Shown here: in pieces, positions 1,117 through 51,788 of the stretch
Layout: each line of letters starts with the position of its first letter
Numbering within the stretch: the first letter of the stretch is position 1
Assembly (NCBI GenBank): GCA_028714635.1
Contig: JAQTLZ010000004.1
Location: forward strand, 32,354 to 96,353
Length of the DNA: 64,000 nt
Direction of reading: 5' to 3'
Source: Minisyncoccota bacterium
GTDB lineage: Bacteria > Patescibacteriota > Minisyncoccia > Phycocordibacterales > JAQTLZ01
The notes under the pieces: generated by a model
Database searches by the model: none
Told to the model about the DNA's origin: nothing
The model's input: the letters and a program-made list of their open reading frames with translations, nothing else
Made by a program: the position numbers and the translations under genes

Positions 1117-1935
1117 TTATTCGAGTCCGAGCACCTGCGCCATCGTGTACATGCCGGGATCCTTGCCGACGATCCATTTCGCGGCGCGGAGTGCTCCTCG
1201 GGCAAACGTATCGCGACTGGACGCCTTGTGTGTCAGCTCGATTCGTTCGCCGCCGATGGCGAAGTAGACAGTGTGTTCACCGACGACGTCGGCCATGCGG
1301 ATGGCATGGATGCCGATTTCTTTCTTCGTTCGTACGCCACGATTGAAAGAAGATCGTCCGTGGACTGCGGTGTATCCTGCATTGGGTTCGAATCCTTTGA
1401 GGACGCTTTGGTACAATCTGAGGGCTGTACCGCTCGGAGCATCCTCTTTTTGGTTGTGATGTGCCTCGACGATCTCAACGTCGTAGCTATCACCCAACGC
1501 TTCGGCAGCTTGTTCAACGAGCTTGAAGAGCACATTCACGCCGACCGAGAAGTTCGGCGCGTGGATGACGGGAATGTGCTCGGCAGCACGGGCTATGCGA
1601 TCTTTCTCGTCCCCCACAACGCCTGTTGTGCCAATGATGATGGGGATTTTCAGATCGGCACAGACTTTGGCGTGGAACGATGCCGTTACGGGCTCGGTAA
1701 AATCAATAAAGACTTGCGCAGTGCTCTCATGGTGAAGGTCACTGTCCACCACCACTCCCAGGCCCTTCTCGACGCCGGCGACTTCACTCAAGTGATGGCC
1801 AACCCATTTGTGGCCCCGACGTTCAAGTGCCTCCACCAGCTTCAGTTCCGGGTCTTTCAAGGTGAGCGCGAGCAAGCACTGACCCATTCGTCCAGCAACG
1901 CCGGCAATGCAAATCCGAGTAGGATTCATGACCAT
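1117..1935 (-). CDS. dapB: 4-hydroxy-tetrahydrodipicolinate reductase.
   Basis: N-terminal Rossmann motif IAGVAGRMG, the HAPNFSxGVN motif, and EIxExHHxxKxDAPSGTA. The gene is much more GC-rich than its surroundings. Confidence 0.85.
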   Translation of the reverse strand: MVMNPTRICIAGVAGRMGQCLLALTLKDPELKLVEALERRGHKWVGHHLSEVAGVEKGLGVVVDSDLHHESTAQVFIDFTEPVTASFHAKVCADLKIPIIIGTTGVVGDEKDRIARAAEHIPVIHAPNFSVGVNVLFKLVEQAAEALGDSYDVEIVEAHHNQKEDAPSGTALRLYQSVLKGFEPNAGYTAVHGRSSFNRGVRTKKEIGIHAIRMADVVGEHTVYFAIGGERIELTHKASSRDTFARGALRAAKWIVGKDPGMYTMAQVLGLE

Positions 1936-6260: not shown

Positions 6261-6641
6261 TTATGTCTTTGTTTCTTTTCGTCGTCCGGTACCCATAGTC
6301 TTTCGTACATTTCCTCGTCGTGTTCGGGAATTGGTCTTTGTTCTCTGGCCTCGTGATGGAAGAGAACGGAGGTGTCGGATTCCTCGATATGCTTTGATGT
6401 CTTTCAAACGCTTAATATTTGCGCCGACTTCTCGCTTCAAATCTCCCTCGATCTTCATTTTTTCGATGATCTTTCGGATCTCGTTTTCTTCTTCAGGTTT
6501 CAAATCTTTCGCTTTTCGTCCGTGCTCGATCTTTGCTTCGTCGAGAATGCTTTGAGCTCGAGAACGTGCAATACCATAGAGGGAGGTAAGTCCGATTTCG
6601 AGTCTTTTATTATCTGGTATTGTGATTCCTACGATTCGCAT
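6261..6641 (-). CDS. rpsM: 30S ribosomal protein S13.
   Basis: MRIVGITIPDNKRLEIGLTSLYGIARSRA. Confidence 0.9.
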   Translation of the reverse strand: MRIVGITIPDNKRLEIGLTSLYGIARSRAQSILDEAKIEHGRKAKDLKPEEENEIRKIIEKMKIEGDLKREVGANIKRLKDIKAYRGIRHLRSLPSRGQRTKTNSRTRRGNVRKTMGTGRRKETKT

Positions 6642-6650
6642 GATTTTAAA

Positions 6651-6728
6651 TAGGGTTTAGGGTGAAGGGTTTAGGAGGTTCGGATGCTTGGTGTTTTTAT
6701 ACCCTCTACCCTATCCCCTTTACCCTGT
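6651..6728. repeat. G-rich arm / loop / C-rich arm inverted repeat built from GGGTNNN heptads, copy 1 of 2. It sits about 9 nt 5' of the rpsM start.
   Basis: tagggtttagggtgaagggtttagg ... accctctaccctatcccctttaccct. A homologous element lies at 16471-16569. Confidence 0.6.
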
Positions 6729-6732
6729 TTTG

Positions 6733-6849
6733 CTAGCCTTGTCGCTGTTTGTGCCGCGGGTCGCTTTTGCAAATGACATAAACATAGCCCTTTCGTCGGA
6801 CTACTTTGCATTGCGGACACATTTTTTTAACTGATGATTTTACCTTCAT
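6733..6849 (-). CDS. rpmJ: 50S ribosomal protein L36. Not in the ORF track (38 aa).
   Basis: My minus-strand translation gives [38 protein letters not shown]. It lies between infA and rpsM, as expected. Confidence 0.85.
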
Positions 6850-6912
6850 TTAAATACAAGAAAAACAGTATGTAACTGTTTCTGCTCCGGCAAATCTACC
6901 GGACATTAAATT

Positions 6913-7131
6913 TTACAAACGTCTGATGATCCTTCCCTTTCCTCCATAGGGTTCGAGCTCAACTTCTACTTTGTCGCCGATGAGTACTCGAATTCGATTC
7001 AAGCGCATTTTGCCTGAAAGGTACGTGAGCAACTCATCTTTCCCTTCAATTTTGACCTTAAAAAGAGCATTTGGAAGTGCTTCGGTAACTATACCGAGCA
7101 CTGATTCGGGTCTCTGTTGTGGGTTCTGCAT
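6913..7131 (-). CDS. infA: Translation initiation factor IF-1.
   Basis: S1-like fold and the ...[28 protein letters not shown]-terminus. Confidence 0.9.
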
Positions 7132-7221
7132 CTCCTTTTAAAACTTTGAGCTTCACAATACTAGCAAAAGAATGGGCAAAAAGTCAACACCCTAAGGGGT
7201 TTTTCGGGGGTTCGGCAAAAA

Positions 7222-8586
7222 TTAGTGCTGTTCGATAGTAATTTTTGAGGTATCGGAGGGGAAAGAACGAAGCCAGAATGGCTTGACGACTACCTCGGCT
7301 TTTTCTATTCCGTGGTATGTGGCAAGGATATTTTGGAGTTCTGCCCTTTGCTTGCCGGCAATCTCACTTACAATTTTATCTGTATCAATGACCCACTGCA
7401 TTTTTGGCTGGCCTTTCAGGTGAAATGAAAGGGTACCTGGATCGAAGGGATGTTTCGGATCAGCTTTTTTAGTTTCGTATGTGAGGTTTTCCATATTGAG
7501 AACGGCGACAGGGCCTCCATCAAAATCTTTCAAGGACTTCTCTGCAATCTGATTGCTCAAAGCTCTTTCATCGAACACGATCGCTTTCAAATTTGCGTGG
7601 ACGCCGACCTCAACTGAACCTCCCGCTGTCTGCTTGTCGGGAAGATTTGAGAAATCAGCAGCGTACGAGTTGGAAAAAAGTACAAAGCCGTCTTGTTTCT
7701 TGGTGTTCACTTGAGAAAGGAGTTCAGCAACAGCTTTTGTCTGCGCTCTTTTTATAGCATCTGTGCGATCTTTGTCGGTAATGGTATTGATCTTTCCGAT
7801 GAGTCCTCCCTGCATTGGAGTTTTTGACCTCGCGTAAAAATCTTTGTATTTTGTTGTACCTTTAAATCCTGGAACAGTGAAATCTACCAGTCCGACGTTG
7901 TATTCTTCGCCGGGAGAATCGGCATAGGCAAGGACGCTGACCGAGCCAGGAATGCTTTTCCCCGCTAAAGTGGCTTTCCCGGGGATTGTGACTGACGAAT
8001 CAATTCTAAAGATAAGGCCATCTGTTGTTTCAAGTCTTGTGTTTCGGATGAGTTTTTGCGGAGTGGTGGAGAAATTATTATAGAGGACCACTGTTCCAGA
8101 CGCTTTCTTTTTTGCATCTTGGGTACCGCTCGCTGTAACAAGTTCTTTCGAATCTTCCGATACCGCAATCGTTTTATATCCGATCCCCTTCATCTCTGGA
8201 ACTTCTTGGGCCACAAAATCGCTGTCGAGAGAGGCGTCTGCTTGCCGAGCGGTGACTTTGAGAGTTGCACTCGATGCAAAAGTAGTAATGAGAAATACCA
8301 AAAGGGCGATTCCCAAGATTCCTCCGACAACCCCGATGAGGATTTTTGGAAGCCGCTTCTTTTTTGGGTATTCGTAATAGGAATAATTCTTTTCTTTTAT
8401 CGGTACTGGTTGTTCTTCCCTTCTTGTTTCTCTTGGAGGGGCGTCAGGAATTCTTCTTTCTGTAGCTTTTTCAGCTTTTTCCCGGACAGGAGGAGGCGTG
8501 GGCGCTGGTTTTTGCCGTTTCAGAGGAATGCGCCTAATGCTTCGTTTTCCTGGCGGTATTACGTCTTGAAAAATTTCTTTTGCCAT
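7222..8586 (-). CDS. Hypothetical bitopic membrane protein: a proline-rich cytoplasmic N-terminus, one TM helix and a large extracytoplasmic domain.
   Basis: PAPTPPPVREK... followed by the TM segment ILIGVVGGILGIALLVFLITTF, then about 340 aa with no recognisable motif. Confidence 0.55.
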   Translation of the reverse strand: MAKEIFQDVIPPGKRSIRRIPLKRQKPAPTPPPVREKAEKATERRIPDAPPRETRREEQPVPIKEKNYSYYEYPKKKRLPKILIGVVGGILGIALLVFLITTFASSATLKVTARQADASLDSDFVAQEVPEMKGIGYKTIAVSEDSKELVTASGTQDAKKKASGTVVLYNNFSTTPQKLIRNTRLETTDGLIFRIDSSVTIPGKATLAGKSIPGSVSVLAYADSPGEEYNVGLVDFTVPGFKGTTKYKDFYARSKTPMQGGLIGKINTITDKDRTDAIKRAQTKAVAELLSQVNTKKQDGFVLFSNSYAADFSNLPDKQTAGGSVEVGVHANLKAIVFDERALSNQIAEKSLKDFDGGPVAVLNMENLTYETKKADPKHPFDPGTLSFHLKGQPKMQWVIDTDKIVSEIAGKQRAELQNILATYHGIEKAEVVVKPFWLRSFPSDTSKITIEQH

Positions 8587-8628
8587 ACTGTTTTGTATTA
8601 TATGCCTATTCTTTATCTTTACCTAACA

Positions 8629-9849
8629 CTATTTTTCTGCGCCGTCTTTTGAAAAGAGCTTGTTCAAGAAAATTGTCTCAAGACAGAGAAACATATCCCC
8701 ATCTCCGATGCCGTTTCTCTCATAATGCAGAGCAAGCGTCTTGCTTTCGAGGGGCACAACTTTTTTCGCGCCGGTTTTCTCGTCCGCTTTTTCTATTTTT
8801 TTGATGACACTGTTGAAAAGATTTGCGAACGGAGGTTCCGAGATGAGATAAAAGAGCGACGGGACAGCTCTATTCTCGCCGAGGTTGCCGAGAGCAGATT
8901 GGAATGCTTCATTCCATTTTGTTTGCATATCTTTCACGACGCCTTCTATCTTTCCGCCCGTTTTTTCGAATGTTTTGCCATCGAGAAAGAGCGAGAGGGA
9001 TGAAATGGCGACATCTCGAGATACTTCTAACGCTTCAGAAATTTTGCGAAGCGTCTGGTTGTGCCCGACTGGGAAAGAAAATGTTTCCAGAAGCCCTCCT
9101 CCTTTGATGAGCGAGATTTCGGTTGATTCTCCTCCGACATCGACAATGAAAAAATCGTTTTCACCCGGATAAATGTCGCGAAGCACGGAATGGGCAACTC
9201 CTGGGAAAGAATGTATGCCAACGTGCCGAGGGTGGAAAGAATGAAGCACGACATCTTTGACACGATTTAGAAGATGCGAATCAATGAAGCTTGAAAGTAT
9301 GTTTGCTTCCGCGGAAAAGATGATCTGGCCGAACGGTTTTGCTGTCTCGTAGCCGTTTAGTTTTATTTGGATGACCTTTTGTTCCAGGAAGTTTATTCCG
9401 CTTACGTTTTTATTTTGATTTGCTTCGACGGCTTTTTCGTACGATGTTTTTTCGTGCGCGAGCATTTCTTTGAGCAGTCTTTCCGTGAATGTAAAAGGCT
9501 TCTCTTTCTCGATGCGGGCAATTTTTGTCTCTGAAATATACCAAGGAGAAGAAAAGACCAAAAATACTTCTTTTACTTTGTGGTCTTTGAATTCGGTGGC
9601 TGAAAGGTGGGCAATCCCCTCTACTTGAAGCGAGCTTGTGACCTTAGTGAGCGCGGAGAGGGTTTCTGAAACTAATTCTTCTGAACCGGGGCTTTCGTGA
9701 AAAGGAATTTCGAGACGGGCTGTGTAGAGAATTTTAGGCTTGCCGTGGCGGGAAAGCTCCAAAAGGGCTCCGCCGACGCTTCGTGAGCTTATATCAAAGA
9801 GAACTGAAATTTCATGCTCTGGTTTTTTGAAAAGAGACGAGAGGAACAT
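8629..9849 (-). CDS. Actin-like ATPase of the FtsA/PilM/ParM superfamily, most likely FtsA-like.
   Basis: Phosphate-1 motif LFDISSRSVGGAL and phosphate-2 motif FIVDVGGESTEISLIKGGG; length is about 400 aa. Confidence 0.5.
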   Translation of the reverse strand: MFLSSLFKKPEHEISVLFDISSRSVGGALLELSRHGKPKILYTARLEIPFHESPGSEELVSETLSALTKVTSSLQVEGIAHLSATEFKDHKVKEVFLVFSSPWYISETKIARIEKEKPFTFTERLLKEMLAHEKTSYEKAVEANQNKNVSGINFLEQKVIQIKLNGYETAKPFGQIIFSAEANILSSFIDSHLLNRVKDVVLHSFHPRHVGIHSFPGVAHSVLRDIYPGENDFFIVDVGGESTEISLIKGGGLLETFSFPVGHNQTLRKISEALEVSRDVAISSLSLFLDGKTFEKTGGKIEGVVKDMQTKWNEAFQSALGNLGENRAVPSLFYLISEPPFANLFNSVIKKIEKADEKTGAKKVVPLESKTLALHYERNGIGDGDMFLCLETIFLNKLFSKDGAEK

Positions 9850-9892
9850 TCATTAATTGTATCATCTCCTCTAAATCCTTTGAAGTGGAAAG

Positions 9893-11665
9893 CTATTCCA
9901 ATACTGCCTTTATACGACGAACTCCGGCGGAGACGGCTTCTTCTTTTTGGATTTTGAAAGTTCCCTTTAATTCTGATGTGTTAGAGACGTGGGGGCCCCC
10001 GCAGAGCTCCATGCTCACGATTCCGGTTTTCTCATTGCCGATGGAATAGACTTTTACCACTTCTCCATATTTATCTTCAAAAACGCCGATAGCGCCGAGT
10101 TCTTTCGCTTCAATAATTGGCATTTCTCGAAAAGAAACTGGAAGTTCTGCCTTGATCTGCGCATTTATCCATTCTTCCACCTGTTTTTTCTCCTCGTCAG
10201 TCATTTTTGCAGTGTGAATGAAGTCGAATCGAAGCCGGTCGGGAGTGATGTTGCTTCCCTTTTGTTCAACGTGCGCGCCGAGCACTTTTCGTAATGCGGA
10301 ATTCAAAAGGTGCGTTGCTGTATGGTATTGAACTTCTTTATCGGAATGCCCCGCAAGTCCTCCTTTAAATTTCTGTTCTGCGCCTTTGCGAGAAAGTTCT
10401 TGGTGTTCTTTGAATTTTTTATTGAAACCAGCAACATCTACCGTCTTACCTTCTTCTTTTGCAAGCTCGAGCGTTACTTCGAGTGGAAAACCGTGGCTTG
10501 AGAAAAGGTCGAAGGCTTCTTCTCCGGAAATATGTTTTTCAGAGATCTTTTCAAATAATTTCAATCCGCTTGCGAGAGTTTTCCTGAATTTCTGCTCTTC
10601 CTCATCGATTTCTTTTCTTATCAGATCACGTTTTTTTGAAATACTATCATATATGATAGTATATTTTTCTATCACTGTTTCGGCAATCCAAGAAAGCGAA
10701 TCGTGCTTCATCTCTAATTTGTCTGCAAAGCGAACAGCTCGTCGAAGAAGTCGGCGCAAAATATATCCAGCATCTGTATTTGATGGAATGACCCCGTCGC
10801 CGATCATGAAAACAGCAGTACGAATGTGATCAGCAACAATTCTCTTCGCTTTTTCGTCGGCAGAAGTTGTGAACTCATTTATCTTTGCCATTATCGGCTG
10901 AAAAAGATCAGTGGCAAAAACATTTGCTACTCCTTGCGAAACCATACAAAGCCGTTCAAAGCCTCCGCCAAAGTCCACATTTTGTTGTTTGAGTTTTCCA
11001 ACCACAACCCCGTTCTTTTTTTCATAGCCCATGAAGACGTCGTTTCCAATTTCCACAACCTCCTGTTTGTTATCGGCTTCGAGATACTCTTCTTTTGTCA
11101 TTTTACCCAAACCTTTTTTCGTAAGGTCGTAGAAAATTTCGGTGTCGGGTCCGCATGGTCCGTTCTCACCCGCTTGCCACCAATTATTTTTTGCGGGAAG
11201 GAAATAGATGCGATCTTTGGGAATTCCAATTGATTCCCAGATTTCTGCCGATTCTGTATCTTTCGGAGCATTTTCATCACCCTCAAAACAGGTTACGTAG
11301 ATTCGATTTGGATCGAGACCGAGTCCCGCTTCCTTGCTTGTAAAGAATTCGTATGTCCAGGAAATAGCATCTTTTTTAAAATAATCACCGAGTGACCAGT
11401 TGCCAAGCATCTCAAAAAAGGTGTTGTGGGTATTGTCTCCCACCTCATCAATGTCTTGTGTACGGACGCATTTCTGAATATTCGCAAGACGTCTTTGTGT
11501 CGGCATAACTCTGCCAAGAAGAAAAGGCACGAGAGGCTGCATTCCGGCAGTTGTAAAAAGAACAGATGGATCATTTTCTGGCAAAAGCGAAGCCGAAGGC
11601 AAAATCATATGATCCCGCTTCTTAAAAAACTCTAAAAATTTGCTTCGAATTTCTTCGGATTGCAT
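9893..11665 (-). CDS. alaS: Alanine--tRNA ligase, a short form lacking the C-Ala domain.
   Basis: Class II catalytic core, the HxxxH editing motif (HTATHLLNSAL) and CGGPHV. The protein is 590 aa versus about 870 aa typically. Confidence 0.85.
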   Translation of the reverse strand: MQSEEIRSKFLEFFKKRDHMILPSASLLPENDPSVLFTTAGMQPLVPFLLGRVMPTQRRLANIQKCVRTQDIDEVGDNTHNTFFEMLGNWSLGDYFKKDAISWTYEFFTSKEAGLGLDPNRIYVTCFEGDENAPKDTESAEIWESIGIPKDRIYFLPAKNNWWQAGENGPCGPDTEIFYDLTKKGLGKMTKEEYLEADNKQEVVEIGNDVFMGYEKKNGVVVGKLKQQNVDFGGGFERLCMVSQGVANVFATDLFQPIMAKINEFTTSADEKAKRIVADHIRTAVFMIGDGVIPSNTDAGYILRRLLRRAVRFADKLEMKHDSLSWIAETVIEKYTIIYDSISKKRDLIRKEIDEEEQKFRKTLASGLKLFEKISEKHISGEEAFDLFSSHGFPLEVTLELAKEEGKTVDVAGFNKKFKEHQELSRKGAEQKFKGGLAGHSDKEVQYHTATHLLNSALRKVLGAHVEQKGSNITPDRLRFDFIHTAKMTDEEKKQVEEWINAQIKAELPVSFREMPIIEAKELGAIGVFEDKYGEVVKVYSIGNEKTGIVSMELCGGPHVSNTSELKGTFKIQKEEAVSAGVRRIKAVLE

Positions 11666-11797
11666 GAGGATAAATATAGCATAATTCGATCAGTTAAAAA
11701 ATTGAGTTGTCCGAACATGTTGACAAATACTAAATTCGTAGTAATCTATATTTTGGTAGACACTCGAATTTCGCAGTGTCGGATTGGGGAGGAAGTC

Positions 11798-12010
11798 ATG
11801 ATCAATAATTTCGTGCCAAGTCCAGATTGGACAGATGCAGAACGCCTCCAGTTGATCGCTCTTCTGGGGCAGGAGATGAAGGAGGCATCTCAACAAGTCC
11901 TCCTAGCATCGTCAAAGGTGTTTACTTGGGGGGAAAAGCTTGTGTTTCTCGCGACACAGAGCCCAGCCTTTCTTGAGGCTAATCGATCACAGATTTTGGG
12001 GGACGATTAG
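11798..12010 (+). CDS. Small hypothetical protein (70 aa). The start codon is at 11798, preceded by a GGAGG Shine-Dalgarno site.
   Basis: The ORF-track ORF 11660-12010 trimmed to the first ATG with an SD. Its GC content is higher than the backbone. Confidence 0.3.
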   Translation: MINNFVPSPDWTDAERLQLIALLGQEMKEASQQVLLASSKVFTWGEKLVFLATQSPAFLEANRSQILGDD

Positions 12011-12052
12011 CCTGCGGCTCCTACGTGACGCGCCGTTGTTCAACTAACATCT

Positions 12053-12100
12053 AGCTGTTTTGTTCGCCGCCAAGCGAACAAAACAGCTATTTTATTTATA
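12053..12100. terminator. Bidirectional rho-independent terminator between convergent genes.
   Basis: agctgttttgttcgc-cgccaa-gcgaacaaaacagct followed by a T run. Confidence 0.55.
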
Positions 12101-12685
12101 TTTTTTCAGAACTTCGAAATCTTTTTTTAAAGTGTCTTTAAGGTGTTGATTATAGATTGCGGCGGCGGGGTGGTAGAGCGGGATGACTGTGAGGCTACCG
12201 TAGGAGACTTCTACTTCAAAAGTTTTGCCGTGCATCATGCTTATTACTTGTAACTGTGCGCCAAGACCGAATTTTTTCATAATGTATTCCATCGAGAAAC
12301 GCCCCAATGTTGCGATGATTTTCGGCTCAATTATAGTGATTTGACGGTCTAAAAATGGCCCGTAAGCGTCTATTTCTGACGGTAGAGGGTCACGATTGTC
12401 AGTAGGCCTATCCTTGACGATGTTTGTCACATAGACGCCCTTTCGGTCAATCCCGACGCTCGCCAAAAGCTCGTCCAAAATCCTGCCTGATGCTCCGCAA
12501 AAAGGCTTGCCCGTTTTGGCCTCATTCTTTCCTGGCGCTTCGCCGATGAACATTATTTTCGCATAATGATCCCCTTCTCCGATCACAGGGAAAACTTTAT
12601 TTTTCCGGCGCTCATCAGCAAGCGGACTTTCCATTGCGAGAAGCTCGTCTTTAATCCGTTTGAGTTTTACTGTGTGTTCGTCCAT
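12092..12685 (-). CDS. Uracil-DNA glycosylase, family 4.
   Basis: Family 4 signature GEAPGxxE...GxPFxGxxG ... HPAA, present here as GEAPGKNEAKTGKPFCGASGRILDELL...YHPAAAIY. Confidence 0.8.
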   Translation of the reverse strand: MDEHTVKLKRIKDELLAMESPLADERRKNKVFPVIGEGDHYAKIMFIGEAPGKNEAKTGKPFCGASGRILDELLASVGIDRKGVYVTNIVKDRPTDNRDPLPSEIDAYGPFLDRQITIIEPKIIATLGRFSMEYIMKKFGLGAQLQVISMMHGKTFEVEVSYGSLTVIPLYHPAAAIYNQHLKDTLKKDFEVLKKYK

Positions 12686-12978
12686 TAATCTTCATTTCTA
12701 GCGAGGTTGTAGCGAGGTTGAACCTCGCTAAGAGCACCCTCCTTTTTAAGAAGTGCGATTTTTTGCATATCTCCGCGATTATAGTGTCCGGTTTTGCCGT
12801 CGGAACGGATGACTCGGTGGCACGGGATTCTCGGATTGTAGTTGGTTTTGAGGATGGAGCCGACAGCGCGGGAAGCCCGAGGGCTTCCCGCGCGCTCTGC
12901 CACTTCTTTGTACGTCAGAACTTTTCCTTTTGGAATTTTCGCCACTACTGCAAACACTTTTTCCGTAAACGTCTTCAT
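12685..12978 (-). CDS. ogt: Methylated-DNA--protein-cysteine methyltransferase (C-terminal DNA-binding/active-site domain).
   Basis: PCHRV active-site motif. It overlaps the UDG gene by 1 nt (ATGA), so a two-gene repair operon is likely. Confidence 0.75.
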   Translation of the reverse strand: MKTFTEKVFAVVAKIPKGKVLTYKEVAERAGSPRASRAVGSILKTNYNPRIPCHRVIRSDGKTGHYNRGDMQKIALLKKEGALSEVQPRYNLARNED

Positions 12979-12986
12979 TTTAAATG

Positions 12987-13469
12987 CTATTTTATTTCTC
13001 CGCTCTCTTCAGAATATTCGGAACCAGTTTCTTTGATCGCTGTCTCTACTTTCCACAGCACGGTAAAGACAAGGAGAGTAAGGACAGTTGCAAAAATTGA
13101 AAGCAAGTAGAGTTGAAATCCAATAGCAATTCCAATCCCGCAGGCGACCCAAAGTCCTGCCGCCGTGGTAAGTCCTTTCAATTTATCATCTTTGAAAATG
13201 ATGAGGCCCGCGCCGAGAAATCCGATGCCGGTAATGATCGCTCCGGGAATCTGTGTGGGAATGACATCGCCCACTCCAAGCGCTCGGGCATGTATGATCT
13301 CTGAAATGACAACAAAAAGACAAGAACCCATTGCGACAAGAGAAAAGGTCCTCATTCCCGCGCCTTTATGAGAGAGACTTCTTTGAATTCCTAAAATCCC
13401 GCCGAGCACCAGCGCGAGGAGTAGCTGGAAGAACATAACAGTATTTGGATTCGCAAAAAATGTATCCAT
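12987..13469 (-). CDS. MgtC/SapB-family membrane protein.
   Basis: Four to five TM helices with MgtC-like sequence (GIQRS...GMRT...GAIITGIGFLGAG...). Confidence 0.75.
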   Translation of the reverse strand: MDTFFANPNTVMFFQLLLALVLGGILGIQRSLSHKGAGMRTFSLVAMGSCLFVVISEIIHARALGVGDVIPTQIPGAIITGIGFLGAGLIIFKDDKLKGLTTAAGLWVACGIGIAIGFQLYLLSIFATVLTLLVFTVLWKVETAIKETGSEYSEESGEIK

Positions 13470-13528
13470 ATAATTTTAAATTGGATTAATTAATGTGGCT
13501 TTATTTTATCGCACCCGAAACTTTCCCG

Positions 13529-14635
13529 CTAGGAGATGATTGCACCGCCGAGGCAGGTGTTTTTGTCGTATACGACTAGAGATTGCCCCGAAGTGACTGC
13601 TTGAATCGGCTTTTCAAAGCTTACTATGGCCGTTTTTTTGGTTTTTATTTCGACGGTACATTTTTCGAGCGGCTGGCGATAGCGGACTCGGGCGCTGTAC
13701 ACCTTTCTTTTTTGAGGAATTTCAGAGATCCAATTGGTATCTTCAATTTTTACAATGTGAGTGTCTTTGAGGAAATTATTTTCCGGTTTTTTTTCTGAGA
13801 CGGTGAGGACGTTTTTCTTGATATCTTTTTTCACAATGTAGTATGGAGTGTCGTGAGGAGTTTTTTTGGTTATTGTGAACCCATGTCTCTGTCCCAAAGT
13901 GTAGAAAAATGCTCCCTCGTGCTTCCCTATCGTTTTCCCAGATTCATCGAGTACTTTTCCGGGTTTTTCTTTCACAAAATGGCTTAAGAATTCTTTAAGG
14001 TCTACTTTACCGATAAAGCAGAGCCCTTGGCTGTCTTTCTTCGTTGCTGTGTGGAGGTTGAATTTTTCTGCGAGCTTTCGCACTTCCGGTTTCTCGATAT
14101 TTCCTACTGGAAAAAATGTTTTTGAAAGTTCTTTTTGCGTGAGTGTCCAGAGAAAATAGCTTTGATCTTTATTGAAGTCAGAGCCAGCTTTCATTTCAAA
14201 TTTTCCACGTTTTGTTTTCGCAACTTGGGCGTAATGGCCAGTAGCGACATAGTCCGCTCCCATCTTGCGGGCCTTATCAAAAAACGCTCTGAATTTCACA
14301 TGGCGGTTGCACATCACGTCTGGATTAGGGGTTCGTCCCGCTTTGTATTCGCGAATCATGTAATCCACCACTTCTTTTTTGTATTCTTTTTGGAGGTCGA
14401 ATGTGAGAAAAGGAATGCCGAGTCGGGCGCAAATCCGCATTGCGTCCAGGCGTTCTTCTTTCCAGTTGCATGGCAGAAAATCTGCCTGCCAGACTTTGAT
14501 GAAAACCCCGGTTACGTCGTACCCGGCTTTTTTAAGGAGTGCAGCAGAAACAGAGGAGTCTACTCCCCCCGAAAGTCCTACAAAGACCTTTTGTTTGGGG
14601 CTTTTTTGAATCATTTCGAACACAGTATGCCACAA
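13529..14635 (-). CDS. mnmA: tRNA-specific 2-thiouridylase.
   Basis: PP-loop GLSGGVDSSV motif and the conserved MnmA middle and C-terminal regions. Confidence 0.9.
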   Translation of the reverse strand: MWHTVFEMIQKSPKQKVFVGLSGGVDSSVSAALLKKAGYDVTGVFIKVWQADFLPCNWKEERLDAMRICARLGIPFLTFDLQKEYKKEVVDYMIREYKAGRTPNPDVMCNRHVKFRAFFDKARKMGADYVATGHYAQVAKTKRGKFEMKAGSDFNKDQSYFLWTLTQKELSKTFFPVGNIEKPEVRKLAEKFNLHTATKKDSQGLCFIGKVDLKEFLSHFVKEKPGKVLDESGKTIGKHEGAFFYTLGQRHGFTITKKTPHDTPYYIVKKDIKKNVLTVSEKKPENNFLKDTHIVKIEDTNWISEIPQKRKVYSARVRYRQPLEKCTVEIKTKKTAIVSFEKPIQAVTSGQSLVVYDKNTCLGGAIIS

Positions 14636-14718
14636 TTGACAAGCTTTGAGAAATGTATACTATTTTCGTCGAAAGTTGGCGTTTAAATCCTTTGAAACCC
14701 TGTTTAAGGAGTCAGACA

Positions 14719-15450
14719 ATGGCCACAAGTCGTCGACAAGGAATTCTGGTGCCGGATTTTACGGCGCGCCCGGATCGCCCAAGCGGGACAATTCCAGCGA
14801 TTGTCCAACTTGAAGGAAATGGGGTCGTCATTGATCTCATTTACCTGAACCGAAGCAAGTTTTTTGAAATGCTTTGGACTGGAACGGTAAGCGCCTGCAG
14901 AAAGGAACTTCAGGTTGTCGGTGTGCGCATAAACTGCGAGGTGAACTCCCTTTTGGTATCGGTTTCAAGAAAATCGGCCAATGATCGTTCGGTGCTTTGT
15001 ACGGTAGAGCGCGACGAGCTTTTTCCCCACAAAAACGAGCCGAAGTTCAAGGATGGAGATGAGATCAGGCCCGTGATTGTCATGCAGACCTTTCCGGAAG
15101 GAATGGTCTCGATGCTTGGCTCAACGAATAGTCTGGCATTCGAAACAATGCGCGACCTAGGCCAGCTTGTACTTTGGTCGGTCTCGAGGAAAAAACTTTG
15201 GCACAAAGGCGCCGAAGAAAGTGGAAATTATGTTCCCGTGGAGCATGTCTACACACACCCAAGCGGCATGCTTCTCACTTATGTGACGAATTCGGCGGTG
15301 CCAGTCTGTCACACAAATTCCTTGGGATGCTACTCTCGCAGTGTTCTTGTCAGTACGCCTCTCCTTATGGATGTCCCGGAAGATAGGATTCCGAGGCTGA
15401 AAGTTCTTGATAGGAGAATGGCGGCGGTGTCCGAGCTGATCAAATCCTGA
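14719..15450 (+). CDS. Hypothetical protein. It is GC-rich and has a strong AAGGAG Shine-Dalgarno site.
   Basis: ORF trimmed to MATSRRQG..., which is preceded by aaggagtcagacaATG. I recognise no domain. Confidence 0.45.
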   Translation: MATSRRQGILVPDFTARPDRPSGTIPAIVQLEGNGVVIDLIYLNRSKFFEMLWTGTVSACRKELQVVGVRINCEVNSLLVSVSRKSANDRSVLCTVERDELFPHKNEPKFKDGDEIRPVIVMQTFPEGMVSMLGSTNSLAFETMRDLGQLVLWSVSRKKLWHKGAEESGNYVPVEHVYTHPSGMLLTYVTNSAVPVCHTNSLGCYSRSVLVSTPLLMDVPEDRIPRLKVLDRRMAAVSELIKS

Positions 15451-15503
15451 TCTTCTCGATGTTCATTTCACACGAAGACGGTTTTCCGAAAGGAGCCGTT
15501 TTT

Positions 15504-16463
15504 TTAATCCAAATATTTTTTCTTGTTTGCTAAATGTTCCGCATAAGTCGCTGCGTAATGCATCACCCCATCTCTTCCTGAAAGGTAAAAAAGATATTTC
15601 GAAGTTGTCGGATGGATGGCTGCGTCTATTGCATCCAAGCCGGGATTTGAAATTGGCCCCGGTGGAAGACCCGTGTGCAAATAGGTGTTGTAAGGAGAAT
15701 CAAATTTCAGATCTTTGAGCGTTAGTTCAAAGGTGGTTTTGTCTGTCACGTAGGAAAGAGGCGCGTCTACTTGAAGGCGCATTCCGAGTTTCAATCGTTT
15801 CCAAAGAACTCCAGCGACCATTTTTCTGTCTTCGCTTGTGAGCGCTTCTTCCTCAAGAATGGACGCCATTGTTATCGCATCTTTAAATGTTCTGCCTGAA
15901 ATAAGAACATCCGCTTTCAAAACCCCCGTCTTTTTTTCGAAATTTTCAGAAAGCGTTTTTATAATATTTTCCGTGGTGATATTTATCGGGAAAAAATAGG
16001 TGTCGGGGAAAAGGTACCCTTCATCTTTTGTAGTAAGCTTCAAAAATTCATTTTTACTGAAATGAAAGTACTCTGCGGGCATTAAATTCGCAATTTGGAG
16101 GGTGTTGAGCCCTTCAGGGATGGTAACGCGTTTCAAAGGAAACCCAAAATCTCCGGCACTCACTCTTTTTGCTATTGAGAAAACAGAGAGTGGTTTCGTG
16201 AAGACGTATTCTCCGGAGATAACTGCTTTTTCATGATTGAGAAGGATGACGAAGTTATCAAAGAGGAATGATGAGCGGATAATCCCCTTCTCTTTCAAAA
16301 ATGAACCGACTTCCTTTAAGGAACTGCCGGATTCGATCATCACTATTTTGTTGGAAGGAAAGCCCGAAGGAGGCAAGGAGAGAAAATAAAAAGCGACTAA
16401 CAAGACGCACCCTGCGATGATGAGGAGAGCTTTTCTTTTCAAAAGGTATTTGGGAAAGCGCAT
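15504..16463 (-). CDS. mltG: Endolytic murein transglycosylase (YceG family).
   Basis: N-terminal TM helix and the conserved YceG C-terminus (...LQVDAPLSYV...YNTYLHTGLPPGPISNPG...). Confidence 0.85.
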   Translation of the reverse strand: MRFPKYLLKRKALLIIAGCVLLVAFYFLSLPPSGFPSNKIVMIESGSSLKEVGSFLKEKGIIRSSFLFDNFVILLNHEKAVISGEYVFTKPLSVFSIAKRVSAGDFGFPLKRVTIPEGLNTLQIANLMPAEYFHFSKNEFLKLTTKDEGYLFPDTYFFPINITTENIIKTLSENFEKKTGVLKADVLISGRTFKDAITMASILEEEALTSEDRKMVAGVLWKRLKLGMRLQVDAPLSYVTDKTTFELTLKDLKFDSPYNTYLHTGLPPGPISNPGLDAIDAAIHPTTSKYLFYLSGRDGVMHYAATYAEHLANKKKYLD

Positions 16464-16470
16464 AGAAGAA

Positions 16471-16569
16471 GGGTAAAGGGTTTAGGGTACAGGGTACAGG
16501 GTAGAAAATACTGTGCTGAGAAAGTTTTGATTTTTATTCTCAACCCCATACCCTCCACCCTGTCCCCTA
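16471..16569. repeat. G-rich / C-rich GGGTNNN-heptad inverted repeat, copy 2 of 2. It sits about 7 nt 5' of the mltG start.
   Basis: gggtaaagggtttagggtacagggtacagggtag ... ccccataccctccaccctgtcccct. Confidence 0.6.
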
Positions 16570-17919
16570 TTATGTTGGCAAATTCGAAGGAGGTTCCACT
16601 TTCTTTGAAGGAATTCTGGTGAATGATGGCGTTGTCGCGGCTTCTCCTGGGAAGTGATAAATGGAAGCGAGGCTTTCTGCATTCATGATAAAGCCGGCTT
16701 CCCGGAAATGATGATAGGGACCTTGGAAGAAGGAGCGTTTCTTGTACGCATCAAGCATCTGCTTTTCCATTCTGTTTCTTCGGATTCTTCGGAAGTCTTG
16801 CCAAGGATAATCGAAATCAGTAAACCAAGCCAATTTTATTTCATTTAATTCTTTCGAATTAAATTGGTTGAAGATTCCAATGATACCCGTGTTCGATATT
16901 GGATTGTAGGCCTCGGCTTTTGCGATGTAAAAAGCGCGGATAGTTGTCTCGAAAGGATATTTAGAAATATTGCGTTCGATCGCAGTAATCGCATTTTTAT
17001 CTCCCTCGCTCATAACTGGATGAATTGGGAATCCGGTATCTGAAACTACGTCTGGTCCCTTGGTTTCCGGATCGCGCTTCATGATCTTATTTACTTCCGC
17101 TTTCCCGGCATCAGACCAGAACGGCTGTTTGTAGAGAAATCCCTCTTTGAGGCCTTGTTTTCTATGGCATTGGAAGAGAACTTGAATCCAAACCGTTTCG
17201 CCTTTTTTCATCGAGCCTAAATATTCAAGAAGCGGAGTCATTGGCTCGATCTTGTATTCCTCTTTTGGATTTTCATGCATGCGAAAATCCATGTATGTTT
17301 TTATCGGATAGATACTTGGCTTCGCGAGATTATAATACGTTCCCCAGATAGGAAGATTCACGGGATCGTGTTCAACTTTATGGACGTAGTCGTCTTCGGG
17401 CTTCACGTCCAAAATTTCAATATTCGGATATTGGCCGTAGAGCTGGTGAACAAGAAGCTCCTTGAATTTTTTGAATGTCCACATGTAGAAGCGAATATTC
17501 CCGTCTTCTGAAACAATTTCGAAAGAAAACCAGGGCTTCACTTTTCCTTTCCAATAAGTTTCAAGATAGGTCGCACTTCCCTTTTGCCATAATGATGTGA
17601 GGACAAGCTCCATTGCTTCGGGAGATTTCACTAGCTCTTTTGGCAACTTAATTTCTATGAGCGCCGAACCCTGCCCCATAAGAAACATTGCGCGCCTCCA
17701 GTGGAGCCAGATATGCATAAATTGCGGAAGAAGAACCAAAGGAAGCCAGATCGGCGAGGTTTCAAAGATAACGGAAATTGTTTTTTCGAGGGCTCCAGGA
17801 AATTGAGCGAGGATAACCAGTGCAACAACGGCGAAAACTCCCACCATGAAATTTTGGAATGGCAGAAGTCCTTTATTGCTCAAATCAAAGATCGCCGGTT
17901 TTTTGGAGCCTGATGACAT
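16570..17919 (-). CDS. Hypothetical membrane protein.
   Basis: 449 aa with two N-terminal TM helices followed by a long soluble domain; I recognise no motif. Confidence 0.55.
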   Translation of the reverse strand: MSSGSKKPAIFDLSNKGLLPFQNFMVGVFAVVALVILAQFPGALEKTISVIFETSPIWLPLVLLPQFMHIWLHWRRAMFLMGQGSALIEIKLPKELVKSPEAMELVLTSLWQKGSATYLETYWKGKVKPWFSFEIVSEDGNIRFYMWTFKKFKELLVHQLYGQYPNIEILDVKPEDDYVHKVEHDPVNLPIWGTYYNLAKPSIYPIKTYMDFRMHENPKEEYKIEPMTPLLEYLGSMKKGETVWIQVLFQCHRKQGLKEGFLYKQPFWSDAGKAEVNKIMKRDPETKGPDVVSDTGFPIHPVMSEGDKNAITAIERNISKYPFETTIRAFYIAKAEAYNPISNTGIIGIFNQFNSKELNEIKLAWFTDFDYPWQDFRRIRRNRMEKQMLDAYKKRSFFQGPYHHFREAGFIMNAESLASIYHFPGEAATTPSFTRIPSKKVEPPSNLPT

Positions 17920-27381: not shown

Positions 27382-28089
27382 TTATGCCTCAATATCCGAA
27401 AAAAGTATCACATGTTTCATTTCTTTAAGAATTCTTGCCGGGGTTTCTGAAAGATGTCCGGCTGGCGCAAATATTTTTCCTAAAGCTTGCCGTTTCTTCT
27501 CTCCAGTTGCGTACACAATAGATTTTTGTATTTTGCTTCGAATAAATGGAAGTGTGATTGTTACTCGATGCGGATACAGATTTTTCCCTTTAGCATCATA
27601 AGCTACAGCAATTTCATTTTGTTCGAAAAGTTTGTCGAAAAGATCAGGGTTTTCTGCAAATGGCAGAATACCTGCAGTATGGCCGTCTTCTCCTATTCCA
27701 AGAATTGCGATGATGTTTCCTTCCGGATTTTTCAAAATCCAATCCTCGATATTTTTTCTGAACCTCTCGCCGAATTGTTCGAAGGTCTCGTCCGTCTCAA
27801 CTCGTGAGTCAAAAAATTGCACCCCTCCTTTTGTTGCATCAGCAAAAAATTGAGTTTTTTGGAGCTGGCTGAAATTATTTATATTTTCATCAATACTGTA
27901 TCTTTCATCCCCCATTCCTATAGTAAGATTTGAAGAGAAAACTTTTGAATCTACAAAATCCAAAAAAGAGAAAGCGGAACCTCCCGCAAGGAGAAGGAGG
28001 GTGGGAATTTTTTCCGAAAAAAGATGCGAAAGTTTCTCACCAGCCCTTTCTTTTAAGATATTTTCGTTTTTTTCAAAATTTCTTTCCAT
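27382..28089 (-). CDS. pgl: 6-phosphogluconolactonase (NagB/RpiA-like fold).
   Basis: GIGEDGHTAGILP motif, and it is immediately downstream of zwf. Confidence 0.7.
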   Translation of the reverse strand: MERNFEKNENILKERAGEKLSHLFSEKIPTLLLLAGGSAFSFLDFVDSKVFSSNLTIGMGDERYSIDENINNFSQLQKTQFFADATKGGVQFFDSRVETDETFEQFGERFRKNIEDWILKNPEGNIIAILGIGEDGHTAGILPFAENPDLFDKLFEQNEIAVAYDAKGKNLYPHRVTITLPFIRSKIQKSIVYATGEKKRQALGKIFAPAGHLSETPARILKEMKHVILFSDIEA

Positions 28090-28171
28090 CCCGTTAGAAG
28101 CTAGCTTCGATTATTTTATAAACCTTCAAATTAAGCACGGTTTGCAGATGTTGGTTGCTTCTAACGGGATC
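28087..28171. repeat. 85-bp MITE-like element, copy A. It has 14-bp terminal inverted repeats ATCCCGTTAGAAGC and an internal GAAGCTAGCTTC palindrome.
   Basis: catcccgttagaagctagcttcgattat...gcttctaacgggat. The other copies are at 36101-36185 and 51704-51788 (inverted). Confidence 0.7.
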
Positions 28172-28182
28172 CATCCTCTTAG

Positions 28183-31830: not shown

Positions 31831-34157
<2,327 letters not shown>

Positions 34158-34184
34158 TTGATTCTACTTACTACTTTCTACTGA

Positions 34185-35717
34185 CTATTTCTGCATCTTC
34201 ACCCATTCCGCCAAAGAATCTTTCAAAGTTTTAAGGATATCGTCTGACATTTCACCTGATTTCTTGATCGCTTCAAAAATTTTCTCTTTGTGCATCTTTT
34301 CAAGATAATCAATCACAGAAAGTGAGGCATCAACGATTTTCTCTGGAGCAATCGCGTCAAAATATCCATTTGTCGCTGTGTAAATAAGGACAGCTTGTTT
34401 CTCGAATGGAATTGGAGCGAGCTCATCTTGCTTCAAAGATTCTGAAAGCGCTTTTCCGCGAGTAAGGGTTTTTCGTGTCGATTCATCGAGATCAGATGCA
34501 AATTGAGAGAAAGCAGCGAGTTCTCGATACTGGGCGAGCTCAAGTCGTAGTTTCCCTGCCACTTTCTTCATCGCCTTTGTCTGCGCCGCAGAACCCACGC
34601 GTGATACGGAGAGTCCGACGTTTACCGCAGGACGAGTTCCTTGGTTGAAAAGTTCTGATTCGAGATAAATCTGTCCGTCGGTGATAGAAATAACGTTTGT
34701 TGGAATGTATGCAGCCACGTCTCCAAGCTGTGTTTCGATGATTGGAAGCGAAGTAAGCGAGCCTCCCCCATTTTCTTTCGAAAGTTTTGCTGATCGCTCG
34801 AGAAGTCTTGAGTGGAGATAGAAAATGTCTCCAGGATAAGCTTCACGGCCTGGCGGACGTCGGAGAAGAAGAGAAATTTCTCGATATGCTGTCGCCTGCT
34901 TTGAAAGATCGTCGTAAATCACGAGGGCATCTTTCCCTTTGTACATAAAATATTCTCCGATGGCGGTTGCACTGTATGGAGCCAAATATCGCATTGAAGT
35001 CGGAGCAGAAGATGGAGCAGAGACGACAATCGTGTATTTCATCGCGCCCGCAGCTTCAAGGGTCGCAATAATTTTTGCAATTTTTGATTCCTTCTGTCCG
35101 ATTGCGACGTAAATACAGATTGGTGTCTGGAACCGAGTATCGTTTTTCTGATTGATGATGGTGTCGATGCAAATAGACGTCTTACCCACTTGTCGATCTC
35201 CAATGACGAGCTGTCTCTGCCCTCGGCCGATCGGAATCATCGAGTCGATAGCTTTGATTCCGGTGTGAATCGGAGTATTTACAGGAGAACGTGCGATAAC
35301 AGACGGTGCTGTTCGTTCTGTAGGATAAAATTCGTGTTTTGAACCAGTTTTAAAAATAGGGCCTTTGCCATCAAGGGGATTTCCAAGAGGGTCAACCACT
35401 CGTCCGATCATTTCGTTCCCTACTGGTACAGAAAGCACGCGTCCTGCGTGAGTAACGATATCCCCCTCTTTAATTTTTTTATAATCTCCGAGAACGATAA
35501 CTCCGACGCTGTCTTCTTCGAGGTTGAAAGCCACGCCGGAAACTTTGCCAGAACTTGTTTCAAATTCCACCATTTCCTGCATCGAAACGTCAGAAAGTCC
35601 CGAAAGGCGGGCAATTCCGTCTCCCACTTCGGTCACTTTCCCGATCTTTTGGGCACGAGCTTCTCGTTTGTACCCAGTGATCTCATTTTTCAGATTTTCG
35701 ATGATTGGTGAAGGCAT
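34185..35717 (-). CDS. atpA: ATP synthase subunit alpha.
   Basis: GDRQVGKT Walker A motif and overall alpha-subunit sequence. Confidence 0.95.
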
Positions 35718-35719
35718 AA

Positions 35720-36103
35720 TTATGCGTTTATAAAAAGATTGTTAATGTGTTTGAGCGCGCTTGAATCGATAAAGACGGAATTATTTAAAAGTATTCGGAT
35801 TCCAGCGATAAGTCTTGGATTTACTTTTTCTTCGAGGAGTACTTTGTCTTTAAATATTCCTTCAATTTCTTTTCTTGTTTTTGCGGTCAAGGGATACGCT
35901 GATTCAACTTCTACTTTTGTCAGACCGTTCTTTTCGACAAATATTTTCTCGAAATGTTTGAGAATAAGCGGCAATCGAATCCAGTCTTTGTTTTTCTTTA
36001 CCGTCTGAACAAAATGCTGGATAAGTTTTTTTTCTTCTCCTTTTTTCGCTCCTTCCAGTGTCTCGTAGAGCGCTTCAGCATATTGTTTCGGCTTGTATTT
36101 CAT
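35720..36103 (-). CDS. atpH: ATP synthase delta (OSCP) subunit, a short form.
   Basis: Position between atpF and atpA, and OSCP-like sequence. It is 127 aa. Confidence 0.7.
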
Positions 36104-36185
36104 CCCGTTAGAAGCTAGCTTCGATTATCTGATAATGGTTCGATTTGGGCATGGTTTGTAAATATTGATTGCTTCTAACGGGATT
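36101..36185. repeat. 85-bp MITE-like element, copy B, inserted between atpF and atpH.
   Basis: catcccgttagaagctagcttcgattatctga...gcttctaacgggat. Confidence 0.7.
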
Positions 36186-36191
36186 CATAGG

Positions 36192-51616: not shown

Positions 51617-51703
51617 GCGATAAAATGAAAAAGGATATTAATATAGTGTAATCATATACTCACAGACTATTTTACGCAATGCATGTTATAGTACCTTCCT
51701 ATG

Positions 51704-51788
51704 AATCCCGTTAGAAGCAACCAATATTTACAAACCATGCATAAACTTAACATTTACCAGATAATCGAAGCTAGCTTCTAACGGGATG
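51704..51788. repeat. 85-bp MITE-like element, copy C, inverted relative to A and B. It ends exactly at the ATG of the pseudouridine synthase gene.
   Basis: atcccgttagaagcaaccaatattt...ataatcgaagctagcttctaacgggATG. Confidence 0.7.

Follow-up and report, generated by a model that had tools for sequence, protein, structure and literature searches.

We have analysed a 64-kb stretch of contig JAQTLZ010000004.1 (GenBank assembly GCA_028714635.1), hereafter referred to as the window, which belongs to a metagenome-assembled genome of Candidatus Pacebacteria, a lineage of the candidate phyla radiation (CPR; Patescibacteria). Two stop-to-start spacers in this window are occupied by extragenic palindromes built of G-rich heptads, one in front of rpsM (element 1) and the other in front of mltG (element 2), each with period-7 GGG arrays of three to five tracts, opposite CCC arrays and a loop of 26-42 nt. 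An earlier note on this DNA, made from the letters alone, had reported both elements, and the sequences that it quoted are present at 6651-6728 and 16471-16569. By architecture and position they are members of a class of G-rich heptamer inverted repeats, and the comparison with syntenic sister genomes, in which the same spacers are empty, identifies them as gains of this lineage. The genes and features at the two sites are as follows.

6261..6641, minus strand: rpsM (ribosomal protein S13), downstream of element 1; Pfam PF00416, E 2.6e-26.
6651..6728, no strand: element 1, heptad palindrome occupying the rpmJ-rpsM spacer; supported by pattern statistics and by the identical sequence in another assembly; not present in the sister genome L003.
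6653..6675, plus strand: G-rich arm of element 1, GGGTTTA GGGTGAA GGGTTTA GG; period 7, 3.6 copies.
6676..6701, no strand: loop of element 1, 26 nt, read from the sequence.
6702..6725, minus (mRNA) strand: G-rich arm of element 1, GGGTAAA GGGGATA GGGTAGA GGG; four G tracts, period 7.
6733..6849, minus strand: rpmJ (ribosomal protein L36), upstream of element 1; Pfam PF00444.
15504..16463, minus strand: mltG (YceG family), downstream of element 2; Pfam PF02618, E 8.4e-73; MltG by NCBI name.
16471..16569, no strand: element 2, heptad palindrome occupying the DUF8128-mltG spacer; identical in two Logan assemblies, absent from the sister genomes L003 and L005.
16471..16501, plus strand: G-rich arm of element 2 with five tracts, GGGTAAA GGGTTTA GGGTACA GGGTACA GGG; period 7, 5.0 copies.
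16502..16543, no strand: loop of element 2, 42 nt, AT-rich, with a small internal hairpin GAGAA...UUCUC, from sequence and fold.
16544..16567, minus (mRNA) strand: G-rich arm of element 2, GGGGACA GGGTGGA GGGTATG GGG; four tracts, G4Hunter -2.12.
16570..17919, minus strand: 449-aa DUF8128 gene, upstream of element 2; PF26449 assigned to the L003 and L005 orthologues.

The elements are real and periodic. The GGG tracts are spaced at exactly 7 nt in all four arms, which contain three (plus a GG), four, five and four tracts in the order listed; the four or five GGG runs per G arm claimed earlier are thus correct for element 2, whereas the plus-strand arm of element 1 has three full GGG runs followed by GG. 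The units are GGGTTTA, GGGTAAA, GGGTACA, GGGTAGA, GGGTGAA, GGGGATA, GGGGACA, GGGTGGA and GGGTATG, and the C arms read on the plus strand CCCTCTA CCCTATC CCCTTTA CCC in element 1 and CCCCATA CCCTCCA CCCTGTC CCC in element 2. Both elements are convergent, with the G arm 5' and the C arm 3' on either strand. Three of the four arms, at 6651-6675, 6698-6726 and 16469-16503, are recognised by Tandem Repeats Finder as period-7 arrays (3.6, 4.1 and 5.0 copies). The pattern GGGN4GGGN4GGG has 8 matches in the 64-kb window, every one within the two elements, against a mean of 0.12 and a maximum of 2 in dinucleotide shuffles, and 12 of the 14 GGGN4GGG pairs also fall within them. A two-arm pattern, GGGTN3GGGN4GGG-N15-45-CCCN4CCCN4CCC, is matched in the window by both elements only, and by none of the shuffles.

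Since the source is a metagenome assembly, in which repeats are prone to mis-assembly, chance composition or an assembly artefact has to be considered. However, there are 8 matches where 0.12 are expected, the sequence of element 1 is identical in GCA_028711105.1 and that of element 2 in two independent Logan assemblies, and the flanking genes are intact and syntenic, which leaves this explanation a negligible probability. The homology of the two elements asserted in the earlier note extends only to their architecture; their loops and heptad variants differ, and the alignments of 74% and 72% in the two orientations are driven by the heptads. Recent copies of a miniature inverted-repeat transposable element (MITE) are ruled out, because the two loops differ in sequence without any relation, the flanks show no target-site duplication and both orientations align equally well. 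The unit GGGTTTA of the plant-type telomere, (TTTAGGG)n, is present as had been pointed out, but it makes up only three of the about 16 heptads. Unlike a telomere array, the elements have 3-5 heterogeneous units and an inverted C-rich arm, and lie at internal intergenic sites between conserved genes. A telomeric repeat array needs a long uniform array at a replicon end, and is therefore rejected.

Both elements fill the spacers between aligned genes, within 50 nt of the stop and of the start, and all four flanking genes are encoded on the minus strand. Element 1 lies between the rpmJ stop codon (6733-6735) and the rpsM ATG (6641-6639), and element 2 between the stop codon of the DUF8128 gene (16570-16572) and the mltG ATG (16463-16461), in spacers of 91 nt and 106 nt, respectively. 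The order in the mRNA is stop codon, G arm, loop, C arm and AUG. The G arm begins 7 nt past the rpmJ stop in element 1 and 2 nt past the DUF8128 stop codon in element 2, and the C-rich 3' arm, which is the plus-strand G arm, ends 11 nt 5' of the rpsM AUG and 7 nt 5' of the mltG AUG. A distance of 7-9 nt to the ATG, as first given, is hence right for mltG but short for rpsM, counted from the last CCC. It is true that neither gene has a Shine-Dalgarno (SD) site, but this is uninformative, because SD scarcity is the norm of the genome: SD-like GGAG, GAGG or AGGA motifs are found upstream of just 3 of 52 window genes, the regions upstream of start codons are A/U-rich, and the anti-SD duplex energies at the window genes are not better than those at random positions. 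An SD-related special case at rpsM and mltG is ruled out, the whole window being SD-poor. On the mRNA strand the loop of element 1 has CCUCCU, which is the anti-SD core sequence and not an SD. The G+C content of the window is 41-50%, so that the window is only moderately AT-rich, the earlier note having spoken of an AT-rich genome.

The evidence on the origin of the elements comes from syntenic sister genomes of the same project, which were found via MltG homologues.

L003, GCA_028711065.1: MltG 82% identical to that of the window; DUF8128-mltG spacer 24 nt; rpmJ-rpsM spacer 18-21 nt.
L005, GCA_028710915.1: MltG 69% identical to that of the window; DUF8128-mltG spacer 24 nt; rpmJ-rpsM outside the covered stretch.

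The gene order from ychF to rpsD is common to the window and the sisters. Element 2 is missing at the DUF8128-mltG site in both L003 and L005, and element 1 is missing at the rpmJ-rpsM site in L003; no target-site duplication is visible at either element when compared with the sister spacers. The MltG proteins of L003 and L005 are 70% identical to each other, which gives the tree ((window, L003), L005), and therefore a single gain at each site is the more parsimonious history as compared with two losses. Three-tract heptad arrays are absent from 34 kb of the two sisters, and no heptad array occurs in 9.7 kb of this genome past the window start; the copies in this genome thus number 2 in the ~74 kb readable. 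In more distant relatives, 32 loci anchored on alanyl-tRNA synthetase (AlaRS) and covering 294 kb contain one chance-like three-tract match and no array pairs. The empty sister sites and the array-free relatives therefore indicate lineage-specific gains, not conserved regulators: the elements were gained in this Pacebacteria lineage, within two AT-rich spacers that were once 18-24 nt long, and are dispensable in the sister species. A conserved leader or regulator of rpsM or mltG is ruled out by the empty sites in L003 and L005. In the Logan runs SRR22315508 and SRR22315509, the loci L001-L007 represent three related Pacebacteria species with MltG 69-82% identical, found together in both runs; one of these three co-occurring species carries the heptad elements.

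These results bear directly on the role in expression that the earlier note had proposed. With the sister spacers empty and no array pairs in the 294 kb of relatives, a dedicated regulatory role for rpsM or mltG is unlikely. Two of the three outcomes that had been set beforehand as speaking against the proposal were in fact obtained, namely no more copies in the 74 kb and no conservation in relatives.

Although the relatives lack such arrays, the same architecture occurs in many other genomes. The two-arm pattern was scanned against a collection of 185,579 species genomes, and the counts given here are from the first 120 loci listed. By a strict criterion, at least 92 loci (92 among the 120 matches listed) have paired G and C arrays of exact period 7 in convergent orientation, and 3 have such a pair in divergent orientation. 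The taxa among the matches listed include Planctomycetota, Gemmatimonadota, Acidobacteriota, Chloroflexi, Nitrospirota, Methylomirabilota, Omnitrophota, Bacteroidota, Nostocales and others, with six Nostoc/Anabaena loci of the two-arm layout (L014, L050, L078, L106, L109 and L123). The closest look-alike of the window elements among them is L118, ATAGGGTTTAGGGTTTAGGGTTTAGGGTTTAGGG...CCCTTTACCCTGTCCCCTCTACCC, and a strong similarity to them is also seen in L117, L021 and L127 and, among viral loci, in L175 and L181. According to crude ORF calls on the matches listed, 133 members of the class lie between co-directional, 50 between convergent and 38 between divergent ORFs, and 4 lie within an ORF; the median distance is 12 nt from stop to element and 30 nt from element to start, most arms comprise 3-5 units, and the loops have a median length of 25 nt. 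Viral contigs yielded at least 90 true heptad pairs in the G-then-C order among the first 120 loci listed, whereas a complete scan for the C-then-G order yielded 90 stretches, mostly homopolymer or GC-rich noise, with 20 of 79 analysed loci being of the heptad type. The architecture is therefore strongly polar, with the G arm 5' on both strands. A BLAST search with element 2 gave one short chance-level match in annotated plasmids and none in annotated phages. A recurrent phage element was also noticed in several IMG/VR contigs, in which G- and C-rich arms surround a conserved loop that reads GTCTATAGAGTCGCTTCCGTAGAAAAAGTCC or the complement of this. It represents a separate family matched by the same pattern, at the following sites.

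L130, 897-975: phage loop element.
L131, 1416-1494: phage loop element.
L147, 8867-8942: phage loop element.
L203, 890-980 and 10041-10131: phage loop element, twice in this contig.

Repeats of this kind have been described previously. Rehm et al. (2015, PLoS One; PMC4692102) reported G-rich heptamer repeats with the unit GGGAATC in Xanthomonas and GGGGA[C/T]T in Nostoc. A Xanthomonas genome has ~185 of these repeats, four units are favoured, and 70-75 cases per genome consist of two arrays on opposite strands in convergent orientation (PMC4692102). The repeats are enriched between aligned ORFs, up to 50 bp past the stop on the coding strand and up to 50 bp before the start on the non-coding strand; they are transcribed, and a regulatory role was sought by these authors but none was found (PMC4692102). 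The window elements share with them a 7-nt unit with a G3-4 tract, about four units per array, convergent strand-paired arrays, and an intergenic location, mostly between co-directional ORFs, in which the G strand is coding past the stop and non-coding before the start. Likewise, both here and in Xanthomonas and Nostoc, unit number and sequence differ between close relatives, and the arrays are capable of forming a G-quadruplex (G4). They differ in their unit, GGGT[A/T/G]N[A], which is very heterogeneous and is neither GGGAATC nor GGGGAYT, and in their host, a small-genome CPR bacterium. There are 2 copies in the 74 kb covered, as against ~185 per Xanthomonas genome, and while most Xanthomonas repeats lie between the same genes in two species, the sister sites are empty here. 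What is new is the heptad unit, the host phylum and the clean comparison of filled and empty sites; the kind of element itself is already described.

Two further groups of repeats resemble the elements in part. The heptanucleotide repeats of heterocystous cyanobacteria known as short tandemly repeated repetitive (STRR) sequences, e.g. CCCCAGT, reportedly described by Mazel et al. in 1990, are tandem heptamers with a C4/G4 tract, intergenic and dispersed, in which they are like the window elements. They are usually described as single long arrays of a uniform unit in high copy, and are not known to have been characterised as stop-to-start palindromes. The other group is that of the repetitive extragenic palindromes (REPs) and their paired forms (REPINs). 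Charnavets et al. (2015) showed for 203 REPs from 105 species a G-tract-rich 5' half and a C-rich 3' half (PMC4690160). Like these, the window elements are extragenic imperfect palindromes with G-rich 5' and C-rich 3' halves that lie past stops and within operons, and their presence varies among relatives. However, they have no GTAG or GTGG at the 5' foot, their arms are tandem heptamers whereas a REP stem is unique, they measure 73-98 bp as against 20-40 bp, and they form no family of near-identical copies.

As for structure, energy models indicate that both elements are able to form a hairpin, in agreement with the structure-forming capacity proposed earlier. The minimum free energies (MFE) of the RNA folds are as follows.

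Element 1, mRNA (minus) strand: -26.3 kcal/mol, z -2.0.
Element 2, mRNA (minus) strand: -44.1 kcal/mol, z -4.7.
Element 1, antisense (plus) strand: -35.3 kcal/mol, z -2.7.
Element 2, antisense (plus) strand: -40.8 kcal/mol, z -3.2.

The DNA folds have z scores of -1.7 to -3.9 against shuffles, and overall element 2 and the plus strand of element 1 clearly fold better than shuffles, while the mRNA strand of element 1 does so only marginally (RNA z -2.0, DNA z -1.7). In both elements the stem is predicted to be closed by pairing of the final stop-codon base with bases of the AUG or with the base directly after it; in element 2 the base after the stop codon also takes part. The complementarity of the 4-nt spacers between the arms is 0.50 and 0.625 (class median 0.50), as compared with a mismatched-arm null whose median is 0.375 and whose 95th percentile is 0.67, and by this null the arm complementarity beyond the heptad consensus is not significant for either element. 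The feature that is kept is the period of the G tracts, and the stems are ladders of GGG:CCC rungs.

This periodicity is one of the grounds on which the elements could be read as a G4 or i-motif switch, in which the G arm as an RNA or DNA G4 would control start-codon access, transcription or mRNA processing of rpsM and mltG: the period of the G tracts is kept better than the arm complementarity, all arms but one contain four or more G3 tracts separated by 4-nt loops, and G4Hunter scores of at least 1.5 are reached by the mRNA-sense G arms only, in both elements (plus-strand values -1.76 for element 1 and -2.12 for element 2). The G arm is also the one to be transcribed first, and with arm and loop taken alone ViennaRNA predicts the G4 as the MFE fold (-11.0 vs -6.9 kcal/mol in element 1 and -19.7 vs -14.5 kcal/mol in element 2). 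Related heptamer oligonucleotides, for which four units are favoured, show circular dichroism signatures of G4 and i-motif in vitro (PMC4692102), and Kaplan et al. (2016, NAR; PMC5100583) proposed a switch between G4, hairpin and duplex for conserved E. coli G4 motifs. The window elements are comparable in that a G4-capable sequence can also form a hairpin, so that the two structures compete; the E. coli motifs, however, are short and conserved, whereas the heptad elements are arrays, and the likeness is one of structure. Against the switch, once the C arm is present the hairpin is the MFE fold of the full elements (-26.3 and -44.1 kcal/mol, with G4 energies included) and no G4 is predicted, and one arm has just three GGG tracts. 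The G4 pattern seen in the earlier note thus exists in three of the four arms, but the full-element hairpin beats it in the energy model. Furthermore, no regulatory role was found by Rehm et al., and RNA i-motifs are unstable (PMC4692102). The sister sites being empty, the expression of the essential rpsM and mltG does not need the elements, and we regard such a switch as unlikely.

The predicted hairpins might instead act as a functional intercistronic RNA. They could, for example, terminate or attenuate transcription in part, be processed by RNase III or RNase E, or stabilise the 3' end, and so determine how much of the upstream gene product is made relative to the downstream one. REP hairpins in E. 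coli stabilise the upstream mRNA, and the hairpins predicted here are long and stable. In addition, members of the class lie directly past stops (median 12 nt among the matches listed) and rarely within ORFs, as was also found in Xanthomonas and Nostoc (PMC4692102). On the other side, an intrinsic (Rho-independent) terminator is ruled out: the terminator scan flagged neither element, the tails 3' of the stems are UAUUUAAAAUC and UUCUUCU with no U tract, and the loops are 26-42 nt long. Nor is the sense strand the more stable one among 122 co-directional members of the class (sense more stable in 51, antisense in 70), and the lack of a sense-strand bias in the two elements and in the class therefore leaves no signature of selection on the sense RNA. 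At gathering thresholds Rfam matches only a tRNA in the window and nothing at the elements, and at permissive thresholds the best sub-threshold hits at the elements are eukaryotic miRNA-precursor models, that is generic long-hairpin noise. Since the sister genomes also lack the elements, we think it rather improbable that they serve in this way.

A possible mobiliser is encoded about 4 kb away from element 1. The window contains a gene for a 233-aa protein like Y1_Tnp and the REP-associated tyrosine transposases (RAYTs) at 2070-2771 on the minus strand, with the HUH motif HFHILV; it scores 29.9 bits with Pfam Y1_Tnp (cut-off 23) and 31.5 bits with NCBIfam REP_Tyr_transpos, below the cut-off of 80. 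A Y1 (HUH) transposase of this type could move the elements as REP/REPIN-type non-autonomous mobile elements, which would fit their nature as extragenic imperfect palindromes varying in presence between sister species, and their G-rich 5'/C-rich 3' polarity, as in the 203 REPs of 105 species (PMC4690160). Each element also has one GTAG. It occurs only within GGGTAGA, however, which is either the loop-proximal heptad or the second-innermost one, lies on a different strand in each element and is away from the 5' foot of the palindrome. Moreover, the gene has palindromes of its own: GTAG palindromes that are nearly identical to each other, GTAGCAAGGAC-n-GTCCTTGCTAC, lie on either side of it at ~2047-2077 and 2797-2825 and nowhere else in the window, and a 66%-identical homologue in another CPR genome (L377, 3001-3681) has homologous CTAGCAAGAAC palindrome flanks. 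The heptad elements are thus ruled out as the cognate REP of this gene. Judged from the sequence, the gene and its flanks look like a conserved RAYT-plus-REP module of CPR bacteria with its own palindrome. Members of the protein family, at 62-71% identity, occur widely in Paceibacterota, including sampled relatives that have no heptad arrays, which argues against this protein as the mobiliser of the heptad elements. With two copies in 74 kb that have no common loop or flank sequence and no target-site duplication, mobilisation of the REP/REPIN type is decidedly doubtful.

A broader conjecture, to which we give little more credence, is that the elements belong to one pan-bacterial, phage-borne class that propagates itself or is mobilised in trans or, alternatively, that a nascent G4/hairpin switch lies behind the G-first polarity and sets translational coupling in the absence of SD sites. 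If the class were mobile, its signal would be the G-tract heptads of the 5' half, read as G4 or single-stranded DNA by an HUH or other enzyme, and the filled sites here beside the empty sister sites would be recent insertion events caught.

Several other features of the window may be recorded. The gene dapB at 1117-1935 (minus strand) has its best homologues outside this genome at 60-63% identity, the named ones being from Planctomycetota and none from CPR, which suggests on sequence grounds that it may have been acquired horizontally. A link of the elements to Planctomycetota by horizontal transfer was rejected, as the nearest dapB homologues are planctomycetal but the donor-like loci contain neither a Y1 gene nor heptad pairs. 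A 91-93 nt repeat is present in three copies, two direct and one inverted (28084-28174, 36098-36188 and 51698-51790), which are 82-90% alike and have terminal inverted repeats of 12 nt, CCCGTTAGAAGC...GCTTCTAACGGG; at least two of them adjoin start codons, those of the ORFs 27382-28089 (minus) and 51786-52523 (plus), and the repeat may be a leader common to paralogous genes or a small MITE. Downstream of a gene for a 197-aa protein of the uracil-DNA glycosylase (UDG) family, a perfect hairpin of 16-17 bp, TAGCTGTTTTGTTCGCC...GGCGAACAAAACAGCTA, with a T-rich plus-strand tail at 12052-12089 looks like a bidirectional terminator. A heptamer array without G tracts, CTACTTA in 3.4 copies (TAAGTAG on the minus strand), occupies 34164-34187 in a 27-nt spacer directly upstream of the ORF 33222-34157. 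Finally, the alanyl-tRNA synthetase encoded at 9893-11665 (minus) has 590 aa and is likewise short in relatives (L003 orthologues); it ends at the tRNA_SAD domain, and the usual C-terminal part is therefore missing.

Taken together, we favour the explanation, at a probability of about 0.55, that the two elements are lineage-specific copies of widespread extragenic heptamer palindromes and most likely tolerated, REP-like passengers with modulatory effects at most. The flanking genes are very probably co-transcribed, as assumed from the ancestral spacers of 18-24 nt, and the elements would then be transcribed within the polycistronic operon mRNA. There the mRNA would fold into a long imperfect hairpin of GGG:CCC rungs with partly mismatched 4-nt spacers between them, in which pairing is possible in several 7-nt registers, so that the gain or loss of a unit would leave the fold intact. 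The base of the predicted stem would join the upstream stop to the downstream start, with the insert of 75-100 nt looped out, and the original proximity of stop and start would therefore be largely kept. Such a looped-out hairpin would explain why the elements are tolerated in a ribosomal-protein operon of a genome that uses unstructured, SD-less starts. Any modulation would concern mRNA stability, processing or translational coupling, and a G4 would form only transiently, on the nascent G arm or in unwound DNA. As to how the copies arose, the candidates are slippage-driven growth from a seed, template switching and mobilisation in trans.

Several points weigh against the passenger explanation. 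No target-site duplication, common loop sequence or set of near-identical copies exists that would point to a mechanism of origin. Moreover, the class is lacking in the relatives of this lineage, so that two independent gains at a distance of 10 kb call for some active process. The arm complementarity lies within the null while the periodicity is kept, which favours a reading by G4 formation or protein recognition, and the tight fit of the elements to stop and start codons could reflect function. Besides, their near-neutrality is inferred from the absence in relatives only, and the transcription of the elements, like the co-transcription of the flanking genes, is assumed from the short ancestral spacers.

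The heptamer inverted repeats known since 2015 from two groups of bacteria are extended by the scans made here to many phyla and to viral contigs, with a strict G-5'/C-3' polarity. In the present case one species has both spacers filled where syntenic sister species have them empty, so that the element is seen to be gained and to be dispensable for the essential rpsM and mltG. The host has a reduced CPR genome nearly without SD sites, in which a structured insert at a start codon should matter here if anywhere. Although no new kind of system is revealed, the comparison, the host and the breadth of the class make the origin of such elements and their tolerance testable.

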